From Eledone cirrhosa (taxonomy: Eukaryota): DNA of 64,000 nt. The translations under genes and the position numbers were made by a program. Below the pieces are notes generated by a model, which saw only the letters and a list, made by a program, of their open reading frames with translations, was not told where the DNA came from and ran no database searches. Shown piece by piece: positions 3,115 through 58,845 of the stretch (position 1 is its first letter; the number at the start of each line of letters is the position of its first letter). The DNA lies in assembly GCA_964016885.1 (NCBI GenBank), contig OZ024743.1, positions 70,494,001 through 70,558,000 on the forward strand, in the 5' to 3' direction.

Positions 3115-3163
3115 GCTTCTACAGGACTAGAACTGTTTAATTCGTGAGAAATCATCAGGAAGC
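3115..3163 (-). ncRNA. Degenerate type-I hammerhead ribozyme
   Basis: Minus: gcttc CTGATGA tttc-tcac-gaat TAAA cag-ttctagtc-ctg TA gaagc; stems I and III pair, GAAA mutated to TAAA; next to a (TA)n tract. Confidence 0.6.
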
Positions 3164-3444
3164 TGGCTGTCCAAGTAAGTAGAAGCGGTAGAAGCTATTC
3201 TATATTAAAACTTTTATACTCTGCTATGTATTGGGTACCTTACTTACTGTGGTTACCTCCGATTCAACCTGGTATAACTTATATATATATACGTGCATAC
3301 TTACATATCTATATAAATAAAAGTTGAATCGTGTCCGTCAGTCCATGTGTCAGTCCACCGATGGAAGTGGGATGGTAAACAATCTACGAAATTCTACCGC
3401 GAAAAAAAATTAAAGTGCTTTGCAACATTTGGAAAGGAGAGAAA

Positions 3445-3740
3445 GAAGGGGGTTATAATATATATATAGAGAGAGATGGGGGTTATAATATAGAGAAAGA
3501 GAAGGGCTCATAATATATATGTACAGAGAGGGGCTTATAATATATATAGAGAGGGGGTTATAATATAGAGTAAGAGAGGGAGGGGCTATAATATATATAG
3601 AGAGAGGGCGATTATAATATAGAGAGAGGGGGTTATGATATATATAGAGAGAGAGGGGGGCTTATAATATATATAGAGAGAGGGGGGTTATAATACATAT
3701 ATAGAGAGAGGGGGTTATAATACATATATAGAGAGAGACT
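3445..3740. repeat. Degenerate minisatellite (ggggttataatatatatagagaga-like, ~22-30 bp unit)
   Basis: About ten imperfect tandem units inside the Helitron. Confidence 0.85.
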
Positions 3741-4075
3741 GACGACGTCGTGGTAACGTAGCAAAACAAAGCTAACAAGAGAGAGATGGGGAGATAGTGA
3801 GAAAGTGATAGAAAGAGACTAGGTAGACAGAGAACTATAATGTTGCAGTCATTGCACCATGTGTGTGTATTCATCTGTTGGAGTGGCTGAAGTTGGCCCT
3901 TTATCTATCGGTCTGTGTGCCTGTCTGTTGTACAGGCAAGAGCCATGTTGTGGTAACCGAACTTGCTAAAAATAACAGCAAAATAAACCTTATCTTCTAC
4001 AACACACACACATTGATTTGTATCTACATATATACCTCTGTATCTATCTATCCATCTACCTACCTACATATCTAT

Positions 4076-6370
4076 GGGGACGTGCTGAGCCAATGCGGCT
4101 GACGCAAATCTCCGGGCCTCGATGGTCTTCCATACAAACTGTATTTAAATATGCCGGGCTTGTTCTTCGATCTCCTCGAGGCGGTCTACTGCAACTGGCA
4201 ACAGAACGGGAGAATTCCCTGTTCTGTCACCAAGGGCGTTGTCTCGCTAGTGAGGAAGGACGAGAACAAGGGGGATGAAATAAGTAATTTCAGGCCCATA
4301 ACTCTACTAAATGCAGAGTTAAAGATTTTGGCCAAGATGTTAGCAAAGAGGTTGGCGCTTGTCGTGGGCAACCTGGTGGGAGATGCCCAGACATGTGCTA
4401 TCCCGTCCAGGTCCATTCATGACAACCTCCACCTCATGCGATACAACATAGAGAGGGTTGGGAACGAACCCGGCTTTGGTGGGGCTATGATCAACTTGGA
4501 TTAATCTAAAGCGTTCGATAGGGTCGACCATCGTTACCTGGATGCGGTGCTAGTGGCGGCAGGTTTCAGACCCGTTTTCAGGGGCTGGATCACTGTCATG
4601 CACAGCAGCCGCATCTGCTCTAGGGTCAAGGTGAACAGCTACCTCTCGGAGCCGTTCGAAATCACGCGATCCATCCGACAGGGATGCCATCTCTCCTCCC
4701 TTCTGTATATATTGGCCCTCGAGCCACTGCTGCGGAAGTTGGAGTTGTTACGGGGCATCCCTTTGGAACCGGGATTGCGGAAAGCGGTGTCGGCCTACAT
4801 GACAGTAATGGTGTCAACCGCCTCGGAAATCGGGGTGATCGGCACCTTACTGGAGGAATACGAAAAGTTTACAGGGGCTAAGCTGAACCGGCAAAAGTCA
4901 GTCGTTTGCAGCTCGGCGAGTGGAGGGGCAAACCGATGGCCTCCGACGGCATCGTCGGATGTTGGACGAAGGGCCCGGTGAAGTTGCTCGGGTCTGGTTC
5001 GGACCAGACCTCCAGGTGGAGAAGAATTCGGGTGGGGTATCGAACAGGGTGTTTGCGCTGACCCAGAAGTGGGCCGAGTGCAAACTATCCCTGAAAGGTC
5101 GGGAGGAGGTGACGAACGCTTATATAGCGTCCGTCATCTATTACCGCCTGACCGTCGTGCCTTGCCCAAGGGAAACGCTCACCAAAATTGGAGCGCGCAC
5201 TCTTCCAATTCTTTTGGAAGAAGCGGACTCCATCTGCTGTCAACACCCTTCGAAAGGAGGGATGGAGATGCCGTGGCTGCTAATGCGTAAACACGTATTA
5301 AGGCTACGGCACCTCCAGGTATTCCTCACCGGTCAACCGGTGTGGGCCCCCTTTGTGAGGCGAGTCTTTCCGAGACTCGTCTCGCTCACCGAGCTGCAGT
5401 CCTGGGTCAAGCAAAGACCGAGAAAGCTGGGTGCCTGGCACACCGAGTGTGCCCAGGTGCTCACGGCTCTCTGGCAGGCGGACCCGGCTATCGGTGAAGA
5501 CTCCACCTCGTCATTCTATAGAGGGATGGTGGTTAGCAGGTGTGACGACACCCTCGGAGAAGCCCTAGACATGGAAGAAGACGAACTGGCCAGCCTAATC
5601 GGTAGGACATTTGGCCCGGGACCTATGGACAACTTCCAGAGGTCCCTGGCCTGGCAGTGCTACCGAGGGGCGCTGCCCGTTCGAGAAAAGCTCTACAGAC
5701 ACGAGCGCCCGGGTAGGGACCCCTCGAAAAAGGTCTGTCCCAGATGCGTGCGCGACGAGGAAACCGTTGTGCACGCATTGGTACACTGCTCGGGCGTTGC
5801 CGATCTGTGGGGCTATGTCGAACGACTGCTGTCACGGGTGGGACCAATCCGGTTGACCACCGAATCTATTGTAACGATCAAGCCGCCGCCCCACTTCAAA
5901 AATGAAGGAGAGGCGGTCTTCCTCTGTGTAATAGCCATGATGAAAGAGGTGGTATGGTGGACACGTTTGAAAGGGCTGAGGTCGGACACCTTTCTCTCCA
6001 GCCAACAACTGGTCCTTTTCTTTAAATACCATTGGATGAAAATGGAGAGCGAGGTGCTCTACCCCAGCAAGTTTTATGAAAGGTGGGTGAAAGTAGCGAG
6101 AATGGCCCGTGTGAATGGGCCCTCTCTCTTTATCAGCCTGTAGGTGGAAAGGTGGAATTTCAAGGGAGCACCCTCTCTCTGTGCTCCCAAGGAAAAGGGT
6201 TGCACACTTTTTCGGGGGTGTGTGCGATCCCCAAAACGCCTTCTTCCTATTGAGGACTGTATTGTTAATTTTATATTTGTTATTTGTTTTTTACTCGTTC
6301 TTTTATGTAAACTCCCCCTCCCCTTGTATTTGTCCCGTTCTTTTGTGCCCTCGTGGCTAATAAATAGAAA
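4076..6370 (+). mobile_element. 5'-truncated L1/Tx1-clade non-LTR retrotransposon (RT + C-terminal CCHC zinc finger), frameshifted
   Basis: NFRPITLLNAELKILAK, NLD*SKAFDRVDH, SIRQGCHLS, CPRC..ETVVHALVHC; 3' aataaa; flanked on both sides by (ATCT/ACCT)-like simple repeat. Confidence 0.9.
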
Positions 6371-6539
6371 CTTATCTATATACCTACCTATCTGTCGATC
6401 TATCTCAAAACTTTCTGCAGCGTCTGTTTTGTATACATCACACACCCTACTCCTACCGCTTACACTTTCTGCAGCGTCTTTTTTTTATACGTCACACACC
6501 CTACTCCTAATGCCTGCACTGTCCGCTTAATCTAACAGA

Positions 6540-57470: not shown

Positions 57471-58171
57471 TCAGATCCGAAACAGCAACGAAGATTACAA
57501 CAGGACAATAAAATTAAAACCAACAGAAGGAAGCGATGTCATCAACCCCCATCCCCTCACCACTACCTCCACCACCACCACCGCCGCCATCACCACCACA
57601 ATCACCACCGGCACCACCACCATCAGTAGTACTACTGCCGTCCTTTAAACATGTCCATATATCAACATGATATCCGGATCATCTGTCATATATATATATA
57701 CACCCCTCTTTCCTTATCTTTATTTGTAAACCACATTTGTATACATACACACGTATATATTCTATATATATATATATACGTGTGTATGTATAGAAATTTG
57801 GTTTACAATATATATATATATATGCATACATCCGTTAGTTTTACTCAAATACTCACGCACGCACGCGCACTCATTTACATTTTTTGTTGTTTTTGCTGTT
57901 GTCTTTGTCCTGTGCGCCCCCCGTGTTTTGAATATAAACATGTATATACATATATATATATATGTGTGTATATATATATATATATATATATATATATGTG
58001 TGTGTGTGTGTGTGTGTGTGTGTGTGTGTGTGTGTGTGTGTGTGCGAGCGTGTTTTGTTTGTGTGTGTATGTATGCATGTATAAATGGAAGCACATACAT
58101 ATACATGCATATATATATATGTGTATGTGTGTGTGTATATATATATATATATATATATATATATATATCTT

Positions 58172-58207
58172 TCTTCTGATGAAGGACTAGCGTCCGAAAC
58201 GTTAAGA
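58172..58207 (+). ncRNA. Ultra-minimal 36-nt hammerhead directly after (TA)n
   Basis: tctt CTGATGA a ggac-tagc-gtcc GAAA cg TT aaga. Confidence 0.8.
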
Positions 58208-58421
58208 CCCTCTTCCTGCTATATCAAGCGTTAACCTAATATATACCTTCCATATACTGTACCGATTGTGTTGTTATTTCTGTTTACCTTTTACATACAT
58301 ACATATATATATATATATATATATATATATGTGTGTGTGTATATATATGTGTATGTAAATATATATATGTGTATATATATATATATATATATATATATAT
58401 ATATATATATATATATATATA

Positions 58422-58624
58422 TAACGAAGGAAGTGTGATAAGGAACCAGGTGGACCATAACGCACCAGAGTACTCGATACTATGAGTAGTAGTATGGGTA
58501 ATAGGAAAATAGTCAGGACCCCGACGGCTGAGCTCCGGCCGTTTAACAGCTAGTTCTGAACTGTCCAGAAATAGCTGTCGAAACGGCCGGAGCTCAGCCG
58601 TCGGGGTCCTGACTCTTTTCCTAT
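58422..58624. mobile_element. Fold-back mini-insertion of the 3' end of the 18.7-21.0 kb PLE family
   Basis: 58422-58545 resembles the reverse complement of 20882-21003; 58501-58624 is a near-perfect hairpin; (TA)n flanks. Confidence 0.85.
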
Positions 58625-58804
58625 ATATATATATATATATTAAAATTTTCTCTCTGGCCTGTTTACATACAAGTATGTGAATGTTGTATATCTAATGATA
58701 TACAGTATGCTTACAAATAAACATTTGACGCCTTCCAGTTATGAATATTGAAAAGCTGACGGCTAGCGCCGTCTAGCAGATTCCAGCAGAAGTAATGAGG
58801 GACA

Positions 58805-58845
58805 ACTGCCAACGCGTTTCTGGCTTTGGCCGTCATCAGGGTAGT
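58805..58845 (-). ncRNA. Minimal hammerhead, intact core
   Basis: actacc CTGATGA c ggc-caaa-gcc a GAAA cgcg TT ggcagt. Confidence 0.8.

Follow-up and report, generated by a model that had tools for sequence, protein, structure and literature searches.

The 64-kb stretch of the Eledone cirrhosa genome analysed here (the window) raises the question of what kinds of element carry its many hammerhead ribozyme motifs, and by what means they were copied. A first-pass annotation had described a dense archipelago of such motifs, mostly lodged between (TA)n tracts, and had taken much of the apparently unique DNA for a population of ribozyme-bearing mini-retroelements. Judged from its sequence, the window is very probably a pile of insertions into (TA)n, in which hammerheads at the 3' ends of Penelope-like elements (PLEs) are accompanied by non-LTR retrozymes likely copied by PLE RT/GIY-YIG. 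Both kinds of element have already been published (PMC4209133, PMC7229834, bioRxiv 10.64898/2026.07.22.740005), and as classes they are known. The features of the window are collected in Table 1.

Table 1. Elements, motifs and open reading frames located in the window
Feature	Position	Strand	Details
Family O unit between (TA)n tracts	3110..3279	.	inverted arm; hammerhead core 3158 (minus), GAAA box changed
LINE ORFs (RTE or L1-Tx1)	4103-6143, 61124-63752
Family A, solo 3' end	9590..9926	+	hammerhead 9669-9711; 90% identical to PLE 3' end 14391-14707
Family A, Neptune-type PLE	14391..17294	-	RT, CX4CxxC linker, GIY-YIG; ORF 14849-16444, upstream piece to 16956; 3' pLTR hammerhead decayed, core 14643; inverted pLTR copy 16937-17294, intact hammerhead 17174-17218 (+)
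Family B, Hydra-type PLE 3' part	18741..21001	+	ORF 18758-19711, CxCX5C, GIY-YIG, long 3' UTR; hammerhead 20816-20909, U3-A8 core
Family C, 532-nt monomer	21002..21439	-	sense arm 21330-21002, hammerhead 21156-21235; deleted inverted arm 21339-21439; tail displaced to 18712-18740
Family D unit	21469..21826	-	hammerhead core 21579
Family E, 840-nt monomer	24530..25667	-	1.35 head-to-tail monomers; intact hammerhead 24680-24790, hammerhead with broken stem I 25520-25631; half motifs 25687-25783, 25839-25959, 36580-36700
Family P 3' end	26027..26192	+	hammerhead core 26034, one change
Family F, Hydra-type PLE 3' fragment	26347..27664	-	ORF pieces 26667-27545; hammerhead 26441-26486
Family G, two-armed truncated PLE insertion	27688..29827	.	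AT-rich 3' UTR; hammerheads 27817-27871 (minus), 29640-29700 (plus)
Family H, young autonomous Hydra-clade PLE	30012..35189	.	opposed pair of arms with 98.9% identity; ORFs 30814-32349 (minus), 32550-34496 (plus); hammerhead-like cores 30286 (minus), 35024 (plus); 109-nt tail on left arm only
Family I, 593-nt monomer	35234..36201	+	inverted arm 35234-35430, 1.31 monomers 35428-36201; hammerheads 35309-35398 (minus), 35874-35963 (plus), U3-A8 core
Family P, second copy, decayed	36285-36451	-
Family G, solo 3' end	36700..36911	+	hammerhead 36809-36869; joined to E half motif
Family J, 483-nt monomer	36942..37373	+	0.89 of a monomer, flanked by (TA)n tracts; hammerhead 37106-37189
Family K, ~520-nt monomer	41384..41829	+	hammerhead core 41486
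Family H, older truncated PLE copy	41921..43108	-	83-92% identical; hammerhead-like core 42080
Family L, 553-556-nt monomer	43160..43766	-	1.1 monomers; hammerhead 43421-43514, long stem III
Family M, short 3' end	58168..58294	+	minimal hammerhead 58172-58207, stem III of 1 bp, stem II preceded by an extra A
Family B 3' end, two-armed fragment	58424..58621	.	hammerhead 3' half per arm
Family N (old), 336-nt monomer	58639..58880	-	copies 78-86% alike; hammerhead 58805-58845
Strict-scan passes among listed sites	9668, 17174, 20816, 21155, 24680, 26444, 27816, 29642, 35309, 35874, 36811, 37106, 43421, 58172, 58805
Further degenerate or half motifs (~9)	3158, 14643, 21339, 26034, ~36444, 25715, 25919, ~36623, 58504-58621

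Hammerhead motifs

The window was scanned with a strict descriptor of the type-I hammerhead (stem I, YUGANRA, stem II, GAAA, stem III, UH, stem I), and sixty local dinucleotide shuffles served as the null. Sixteen motifs scored 10 or more, against 0.75 on average and at most 3 in the shuffles, and eight scored 14 or more, against 0.07. The core boxes and UH are present at all 21 sites for which the first-pass annotation had claimed an intact or compensated core, but only 15 pass the strict scan: stem I is weak or absent (at most 1 bp adjacent) at 21492, 25520, 30178, 35024 and 41972, and short and decayed at 41484. These six failures score 9.2-11.8 in a relaxed scan, for which the shuffle 99th percentile is 9.9. 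The sixteenth strict match, at 21339, is a deleted copy outside the listed 21. Altogether the window holds about 30 motifs in 16 families, close to the 28 or so motifs and 15 families previously estimated. Two of the partial motifs are explained by a local inverted duplication.

Shuffled controls and stem covariation had both been put forward as checks on the motifs, and the second bears them out as the first does. Across 38 sequences of the G superfamily, stem II is 92% paired, compared with 73% after permutation (maximum 83% in 2000 permutations), in subfamilies chosen on stem I and core only and with the kinship of copies left in the statistic. When eight subfamily representatives, chosen as the best-paired, are permuted, the observed pairing is reached by 16 of 40320 permutations. 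Family O has stem I variants with compensatory change. A short stem III with a self-complementary centre, which the strict scan does not demand, occurs in 30 of 45 real matches compared with 13 of 274 shuffle matches, the latter taken at a lower threshold; and about 47 unrelated motif clusters have retained the core boxes, the covarying stems and a self-complementary stem III. A third check, with the Rfam hammerhead models, went the other way: none matched in the window at the gathering score, none matched the best motif (36944-37372) at E<=10, and no hammerhead was among the 150 of 230 matches listed. Chance matches in AT-rich sequence would account for this silence and for the matches that shuffles yield below score 10, but such an explanation is extremely improbable, and was rejected, in view of the covariation and of the excess over shuffles both in the window and in 33 genome tiles (32 motifs against 1.9).

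Minimum-energy folds show stems I and II for families A, F, G, I, B and J and differ from the hammerhead for C, E, K, L, M, N and H; folding z-scores are mostly weak. The type-I core (CUGANGA or its U3-A8 variant, GAAA and UH) is joined by stems I-III at the 15 listed sites that pass the strict scan, and at the level of sequence the motifs are confirmed as genuine type-I hammerhead motifs, for which cleavage is predicted. At the family H sites (30178, 35024 and 41972) adjacent stem I is only 1 bp, as it is in near-identical complete copies; it is doubtful that these represent a working variant whose stem I is replaced by an 8-nt pairing of loop II with the post-cut strand.

Coding Penelope-like elements

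Two kinds are found among the families, PLE 3' ends and non-coding monomers, each with about half of the motifs. Ten of the 21 listed sites are 3' ends (pseudo-LTRs) of coding Hydra- and Neptune-type PLEs, nine belong to seven non-coding head-to-tail monomer families of 336-840 nt, and two (families D and M) were placed in neither kind. As had been estimated at about two thirds, units with no ORF hold 15 of the sites (71%): nine retrozyme-type, two of neither kind, and four (9668, 27816, 29642 and 36811) that are plain 3' ends of coding PLEs and lack an ORF because they are 5'-truncated. The mini-retroelement reading thus holds for the seven monomer families, which bear a PLE-type footprint, but not for these four, and its extension to much of the apparently unique DNA was overstated, since retrozyme units account for 7.2% of the window and PLE-derived DNA for 27%, or for 15% and 52%, respectively, of 14391-43766.

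Family A has a C-terminal GIY-YIG domain with CCHH after a CX2-5CxxC linker, and a reverse transcriptase that matches RVT_1 only weakly (E=2e-4, below the Pfam cut-off); on its motifs it would be a Neptune-clade PLE, Nematis being the other candidate clade. The solo end of this family was considered as a retrozyme and rejected, being a truncated family-A PLE end. Family H has the RWK and DKT motifs, a CxCX5C linker and, at the C-terminus, GIY-YIG in a single ORF within less than 3 kb, as expected of the Hydra clade; at one genomic locus (L227) its ORF of 730 aa lies in a 2727-bp direct repeat and has a frameshift near the C-terminus. Hydra-type motifs are present in H and B, and families B, F, G and P appear to be Hydra-type by protein similarity, clades being assigned here by similarity and motifs. 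A Hydra-type ORF was found by tblastn in most of 19 long genomic copies of family G, in several of which the UTR follows directly on the end of the ORF, and at locus L193 family P is found on the downstream side of a Hydra-type ORF, in the same orientation. The family B element is inserted in retrozyme C's tail, and on both sides 9-10 nt overlap.

Families D, M and O are possibly also 5'-truncated ends of coding PLEs. Stems I and III of family D are decayed in the window copy and intact in relatives, and family O, whose parent may be a PLE or a retrozyme, has intact hammerhead relatives elsewhere in the genome.

Non-coding monomers

Families C, E, I, J, K, L and N form head-to-tail arrays across the genome, with one hammerhead per monomer; stem I of family K, decayed in the window copy, is strong in most relatives. 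The direct arm exceeds one monomer at 26 of 30 loci for J, 15 of 20 for I, 20 of 20 for L, 13 of 15 for E, 9 of 15 for both K and C, and 6 of 12 for N, fractions that are inflated because the loci are the best matches to near-full-length queries. One family I array has about six monomers; arrays of three to six are widely scattered, and most copies have one or two. The longest ATG ORF in the seven families is 33-77 aa, and the I, J and L monomers have a GC content of 38-42%.

It is very improbable that every unit without an ORF is the 5'-truncated 3' end of a coding PLE, a solo pseudo-LTR, non-autonomous elements being absent. That account, which was given for single minimal hammerheads in PMC4209133, is true of A, G and P and possible for D, M and O. 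In C, E, I, J, K, L and N, however, upstream of the unit comes the preceding monomer's end and not an ORF, and these ORF-less end-to-start junctions led to its rejection for all seven; by tblastn, moreover, the PLE proteins of the window do not match the I, J and L monomers. A search of the monomers against ten PLE UTR pieces and 1.0 Mb of genome DNA, covering a minority of the genome's PLE families, gave short AT-rich matches only, so that no partner PLE was identified by sequence. Assignment of the seven families to the metazoan non-LTR retrozyme type is supported by their organisation. The type-III hammerheads, two LTRs, PBS and PPT of plant LTR retrozymes do not describe them, the motifs being type I in tandem monomers.

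Insertion footprint

The insertions end in (TA)n, their 5' ends are variably truncated, and a 5' inverted arm is common. As had been claimed, the motifs lie close to such tracts: the median distance to a (TA)5+ tract is 174 nt, against 825 nt for random positions (p=4e-10; 45 motifs, taken from the window and from 20 tiles). In each family there are two fixed 3' ends, separated by 86-163 nt and both lying downstream of where the cut is predicted, and the arms of a single insertion take different fixed ends in 44 of 45 retrozyme insertions and in all six of the autonomous Hydra PLE H. For J, I and L pooled the counts are 20/0/0/8 (Fisher p=3.2e-7), with 8 of 8 for K and 8 of 9 for C, the exception being a C insertion (L160) with the same end in both arms; eleven inverted arms that are off the fixed sites or ambiguous (J 1, L 2, K 4, C 4) are left out of the count. 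Divergence within a locus is below that between loci in three families, at 0.83 against 1.57% in I, 1.79 against 3.15% in C and 0.57 against 0.93% in H, and in family J pieces within a locus are no closer (3.9 vs 3.6%), which probably reflects older neighbouring copies.

All six two-armed insertions of family H combine insertion in (TA)n, an inverted 5' copy and a tail at one end, and these features are known of PLEs, Hydra especially (PMC8557442). The footprint common to the retrozymes and this element therefore points to mobilisation by PLEs. That non-coding monomers share this strict footprint with an autonomous Hydra PLE of the window directly supports, at the level of the genome, a role that PLEs had been proposed to play for animal retrozymes, the enzyme and the copying of circles being proposed, rather than shown, in the sections of PMC7229834 and 10.64898/2026.07.22.740005 available to us. 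It is highly unlikely that the monomers are instead satellite-like repeats propagated at the DNA level by unequal crossover or gene conversion, or SINE-like passengers of RTE or L1-Tx1. Some loci are segmental duplicates (the C12 and C17 clusters), the inverted duplication mentioned above would fit, and LINE ORFs lie in the window; but each family is scattered over many chromosomes in copies with unrelated flanks, 3' ends are fixed and 5' ends ragged, the two-end rule is that of PLE H, and retrozyme-type copies have no poly-A tails.

Proposed mechanism

In the mechanism proposed, a PLE protein, probably a dimer, would bind the RNA downstream of the hammerhead and nick a (TA)n target on both strands; the two nicks would prime reverse transcription at separate TA-like sites, one for each nick, of a single RNA, and the resulting pair of cDNAs would be joined as opposed arms. 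Insertions would pile up because each leaves (TA)n on both sides as targets for the next.

Retrozyme cDNA would pass the junction between monomers, and the cut site, as many as six times, so that the template would be either an uncut multimer or a monomer circle. With modest confidence we favour a circle, which would arise by hammerhead cleavage and ligation. It is possible, but less likely, that mobilisation is the same and the template a linear transcript reading through a genomic tandem, with no need for a circle and with the hammerhead a passenger or serving some other step. Genomic multimers exist as possible sources, several monomers favour non-hammerhead folds, family H spreads though its motif has no normal stem I, and the PLE tested in vitro inserts without need for hammerhead cleavage, even with hammerhead mutants (PMC11167929). 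A linear template sits less well with the conservation of core and stems in some 47 unrelated clusters, with the wide scatter of the longer arrays among copies of mostly one or two monomers, and with the retrozyme circles shown in coral, mussel and axolotl (PMC7229834). Eight of nine Xenopus dimers failed to cleave (10.64898/2026.07.22.740005). The young Hydra PLE beside young monomers offers a ready system for testing two-site rolling-circle copying, and exact RNA sites and young candidate partners are now named for in vitro work.

The PLE studied in vitro, PAc (Poseidon of Anolis; PMC11167929), likewise has two reverse transcription start sites in the RNA downstream of the hammerhead, an AT-rich target, both strands cut and extended, and a predicted dimer, features that for the window we infer from genome sequence. 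In PAc the strands were not seen to differ in start site, and no primer homology was seen, whereas here the arms nearly always take different sites, which are TA-like matches to the target.

Comparison with known elements and genome-wide load

Metazoan non-LTR retrozymes, as far as their descriptions in PMC7229834 and 10.64898/2026.07.22.740005 extend, likewise lack coding capacity, are low in GC and consist of head-to-tail monomers that each contain a single type-I hammerhead, occurring as monomers to multimers alongside PLEs. Monomer size differs, at 336-840 nt here against typically 150-450 bp in the former and 51-972 bp in the latter, and the hammerheads here are PLE-like, with a long loop II and some U3-A8 cores, where those of metazoan retrozymes are described as canonical. 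Neither inverted arms, nor a pair of fixed ends, nor (TA)n targets were found in those descriptions. Homology to PLE pLTRs, which the search of PLE UTR pieces did not find here, is reported for 24 of 57 Xenopus families (10.64898/2026.07.22.740005). Seven retrozyme-type families lie within these 64 kb.

Compared with the Hydra-clade PLEs of PMC8557442, family H agrees in its 2.7-kb unit, coding motifs and insertion habit, and differs in its 109-nt tail (30-40 bp in that clade) and in a hammerhead without normal stem I; at least five Hydra-type families occur in the window, against a small number reported there outside cnidarians. With the Neptune clade (PMC8557442) family A shares the linker, the C-terminal GIY-YIG, two internal cysteines and later histidines. 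PLE minimal hammerheads have been described as single scattered motifs from truncated PLEs, as opposite-strand pairs 100-700 bp apart, and with U3-A8 cores or an extra base before stem II (PMC4209133).

The 33 tiles give about 91 motifs/Mb, or about 270,000 genome-wide; reported loads, obtained with differing descriptors and hence not strictly comparable, are about 9,000 in Xenopus, more than 6,000 in Acropora and 126,247 in axolotl. This may plausibly be the largest of these hammerhead loads, in dozens of families, a large part being circular-RNA parasites copied by a dimeric PLE enzyme through two rolling-circle reverse transcriptions from two fixed sites, one per target strand, although that whole picture falls somewhat short of probable. 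About one motif per 11 kb implies a sizeable unannotated ribozyme-bearing fraction, missed by Rfam; in a recent repeat annotation of Octopus vulgaris (PMC13282606), which lists 893 unclassified active SINE families, a term search found neither 'ribozyme' nor 'retrozyme'. The archipelago is indeed dense, at 203 motifs/Mb, but this is not specific to the window, the count being reached in about 6% of resampled tile draws: the window is an ordinary sample of a genome in which both kinds of element are unusually abundant.

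Hammerhead motifs and their controls

A 379-Mb contig of a 3.0-Gb animal genome contains the window, whose 64 kb abound in simple repeats, (TA)n among them. Retrotransposon ORFs are present, no host gene is obvious, and the repeat content appears octopus-like. The first-pass annotation had counted about 28 type-I hammerhead motifs in about 15 families, with an intact or compensated core at 21 listed sites. The core boxes are indeed present at all 21, and with about nine further degenerate or half motifs the total comes to about 30 in 16 families (A-P). A strict scan is passed by 15 of the 21 sites; in the remaining six stem I is weak, the adjacent helix being at most 1 bp at 21492, 25520, 30178, 35024 and 41972, and decayed at 41484. 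A purpose-written scored descriptor of the type-I hammerhead, set against 60 local dinucleotide shuffles, found 16 motifs at a score of at least 10 (shuffle mean 0.75) and 8 at a score of at least 14 (shuffle mean 0.07). The hammerhead observation is confirmed, and the first reading of it was partly right.

Besides shuffled controls, stem covariation and an Rfam hammerhead model had been named as checks. Among 38 sequences of the G superfamily, selected solely for stem I, the core and the GAAA side, 92% of stem II cells are paired, compared with 73% when partners are permuted, a difference inflated by kinship between the sequences. Several pair types occur per position, and a mismatch at position 4 is conserved. 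The short stem III has a self-complementary centre in 30 of 45 real matches and in 13 of 274 shuffle matches, which would allow dimer folding. Since neither feature is forced by the way the sequences were picked, together they support real selection on the hammerhead structure. Counted against this, Rfam scans of the window detected no hammerhead, giving only microsatellite-driven miRNA noise among the matches listed, and when 13 motifs were folded to minimum energy, the hammerhead stems were recovered in about half.

A genome sample of thirty-three 10-kb tiles, placed at round-number positions, contains 32 motifs scoring at least 12, compared with 1.9 in shuffles. This corresponds to 91 per Mb (bootstrap 44–148), and extrapolation from these tiles at this score gives a genome load of about 270,000 motifs (130,000–440,000). 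The density of the window is 203 per Mb, a count matched by resampled tiles in 6% of draws, so that the idea of a special hotspot is rejected at a resampling P of about 0.06: hammerhead abundance is a property of the whole genome. Motif and (TA)n counts per tile are correlated (Spearman 0.61), and the median distance from a motif to a (TA)5+ tract is 174 nt, compared with 825 nt for random sites. About 47 motif clusters were met within 1.0 Mb of sampled genome DNA.

Two kinds of element carry the motifs

Both kinds of element are already known; here their members lie side by side, and the value of the finding lies in the motif load, the family diversity and a testable link of retrozymes to a named clade of Penelope-like elements (PLEs). 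Coding PLEs account, through their 3' ends, for ten of the 21 listed motifs, four of which are in truncated copies without an ORF. At 9590-9926, family A shows 90% identity with the 3' end of an RT-GIY-YIG element (14391-16956). Upstream, this element also has an inverted copy of its pseudo-LTR, and its CX4CxxC linker is of Neptune/Nematis type. Near-perfect inverted repeats occur at 13905-14044 (140 bp) and 16822-16938 (117 bp), the latter at the junction of the arms of this element. A second Neptune-type PLE, at 12139-13545 (-), is 71% identical to family A and ends at (TA)n before its 3' end.

Families B and F lie downstream of GIY-YIG ORFs in the window. Family G has no ORF there; its copies at ten loci have a common 3' end in (TA)n and differ in where the 5' end lies, and a search with the upstream part led to copies that continue into a Hydra-type ORF. 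Family P lies downstream of such an ORF in one of the two loci extended. Family H is young, its copies being 98% alike, and has a 730-aa ORF within a 2727-bp direct repeat with RWK, DKT and CxCX5C, which are Hydra-clade diagnostics according to PMC8557442. The proteins of A and H can hardly be aligned, consistent with membership of different clades; no Pfam GIY-YIG model matched the endonucleases of the window PLEs. In family H the motif has a stem I of only 1 bp, in young copies as well as in two that are 83% diverged, and its predicted cut site is followed directly by eight bases complementary to the end of loop II. The motif could be dead although the element is active, or could represent a variant with a pseudoknot.

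A further nine of the 21 motifs belong to non-coding head-to-tail monomers of retrozyme type, whose longest ATG ORFs are 33–77 aa. Upstream of their units, families J, I, L, E, K, C and N show the end of a preceding monomer, with periods of 483 (J), 593 (I), 553–556 (L), 840 (E), about 520 (K), 532 (C) and 336 nt (N). The direct arm is longer than one monomer at 26/30 J, 15/20 I, 20/20 L, 13/15 E, 9/15 K, 9/15 C and 6/12 N loci, these being best matches with segmental duplicates included (four J on C17, eight L on C12). For each family 40 of the 1,394–3,521 first-look candidates were scored, totals that are not copy numbers. In one family I array about six monomers are joined. Compared with the window copy, identity is 97–99% for I, J and C, 89–97% for E, K and L, and 78–86% for N; pieces within a locus are closer than pieces between loci for I, C and H, and not for J. 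Family I and its end-to-start joint occur in contigs of three of four sequence runs of unrecorded kind, a joint that genomic tandems also give; such contigs are no measure of expression, and the result is counted on neither side. No RNA-editing scar (sense A>G excess) appeared among distinct variants of C, E, I, J, K, L or H (p 0.50–0.95), and a sequence search for a partner PLE of the monomers, among 10 UTR pieces and 1.0 Mb of genome DNA, gave short AT-rich matches only. Eight near-identical loci about 60 kb apart (L089-L094, L098, L099; G000:C12:17.02-17.48 Mb) make up an extensive array of tandem segmental duplicates, in which a family L copy has a broken hammerhead.

The proposal that ORF-less mini-retroelements account for much of the apparently unique DNA thus holds for the existence of such units, but retrozyme units make up 7.2% of the window, compared with 27.1% for PLE-derived DNA, and four ORF-less motifs belong to truncated coding PLEs. 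Nesting is shown directly by PLE B, which is inserted within the tail of retrozyme C.

Units of families D, M and O, placed in neither kind, make up 1.0% of the window; neither ORF nor monomer junction was found in the upstream stretches examined. A genome search with family M gave no candidates, which is not a sign of rarity, as seven M copies occur in the loci sampled. An apparent 956-bp M tandem at locus L195 turned out to be two distinct insertions separated by unlike DNA, and M is therefore not called a retrozyme.

A shared insertion footprint

Two fixed TA-like positions, both downstream of the predicted cut, serve as alternative ends in every well-sampled family: +80/+189 nt for J, +80/+243 for I, +61/+177 for C, and about +58 and +167 for H. 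In the window copies the cut is predicted after 37184 in J, 35958 in I and 21160 in C. In 44 of 45 two-armed insertions one site is used by the sense end and the other by the distal end of the 5' inverted arm. The two directions are represented by 11 and 2 insertions in J, 7 and 4 in I, and 2 and 2 in L, and in none of these is one site used twice (pooled Fisher p=3.2e-7); different sites are used in 8/8 K and 8/9 C insertions, families in which the sense end was set by the query. This tally leaves out L057 (the same locus as L048), eleven off-site or ambiguous arms (L049, L085, L096, L136, L139, L145, L147, L151, L156, L161, L162), and families E and N, which have too few inverted arms. The autonomous PLE H follows the same two-end rule in 6/6 two-armed insertions, the window's own among them.

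A counterpart of this footprint is the PLE tail, often found at one end only (PMC8557442) and linked in PMC11167929 to two RT start sites with extension of both target strands. Searches of the open literature gave no paper on cephalopod retrozymes or on a two-end footprint in retrozymes; cephalopod families could already be named in the Hydra family lists supplementing PMC8557442 or among the species screened in the supplements of PMC7229834. The probable mechanism is that a PLE RT/GIY-YIG protein nicks both strands of a (TA)n target, that the two nicks prime at separate sites of a single RNA, and that the two cDNAs are then joined as opposed arms, whose fresh (TA)n flanks would invite further insertions. 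Because the cDNA crosses the predicted cut site repeatedly, the template would be an uncut multimer or a ligated circle, and for retrozymes the chances of a circle are judged slightly better than even.

Other repeats of the window

Positions of the family H motif and of other repeats (window coordinates)
Feature	Position	Description
Family H motif	35024-35140 (+), 30286 (-), 42080 (-); other loci L072, L202-L226	perfect core, 11-bp stem II, palindromic stem III
Broken LINE	4103-6143 (+)	RT with zf-RVT
Broken LINE	61124-63752 (-)	endonuclease-RT with internal PHD-like finger
175-210-bp dispersed repeat	7666-7841, 8464-8687, 11425-11639, 22812-23021, 29137-29346, 38420-38636, 45187-45593, 53225-53436, and others	
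Second dispersed repeat	22150-22298, 39656-39800, 40966-41103, 37835-37956	
Minisatellite	48862-49603	31 bp
Minisatellite	51226-51540	44 bp
Minisatellite	17753-17955	37 bp

The LINE with zf-RVT is presumably L1-Tx1-like, and that with the PHD-like finger RTE-like. Segments 25783-26192 and 36285-36756 form an old local inverted duplication (91–93%) with the same E/G chimeric junction and P end, so that their two partial motifs are not independent insertions. A repeat between (TA)n tracts at 13582-13857, also found at loci L049 and L076 (in the latter as an inverted pair), has a first hammerhead box near its end and no second box. The 175-210-bp repeat is SINE- or MITE-like, with more than 12 copies, often as inverted pairs, in AT-rich sites including the inside of family G. 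The second dispersed repeat is likely a tRNA-derived SINE; its segment 41041-41098 matches tRNA weakly (28.3 bits, slightly below the gathering score).
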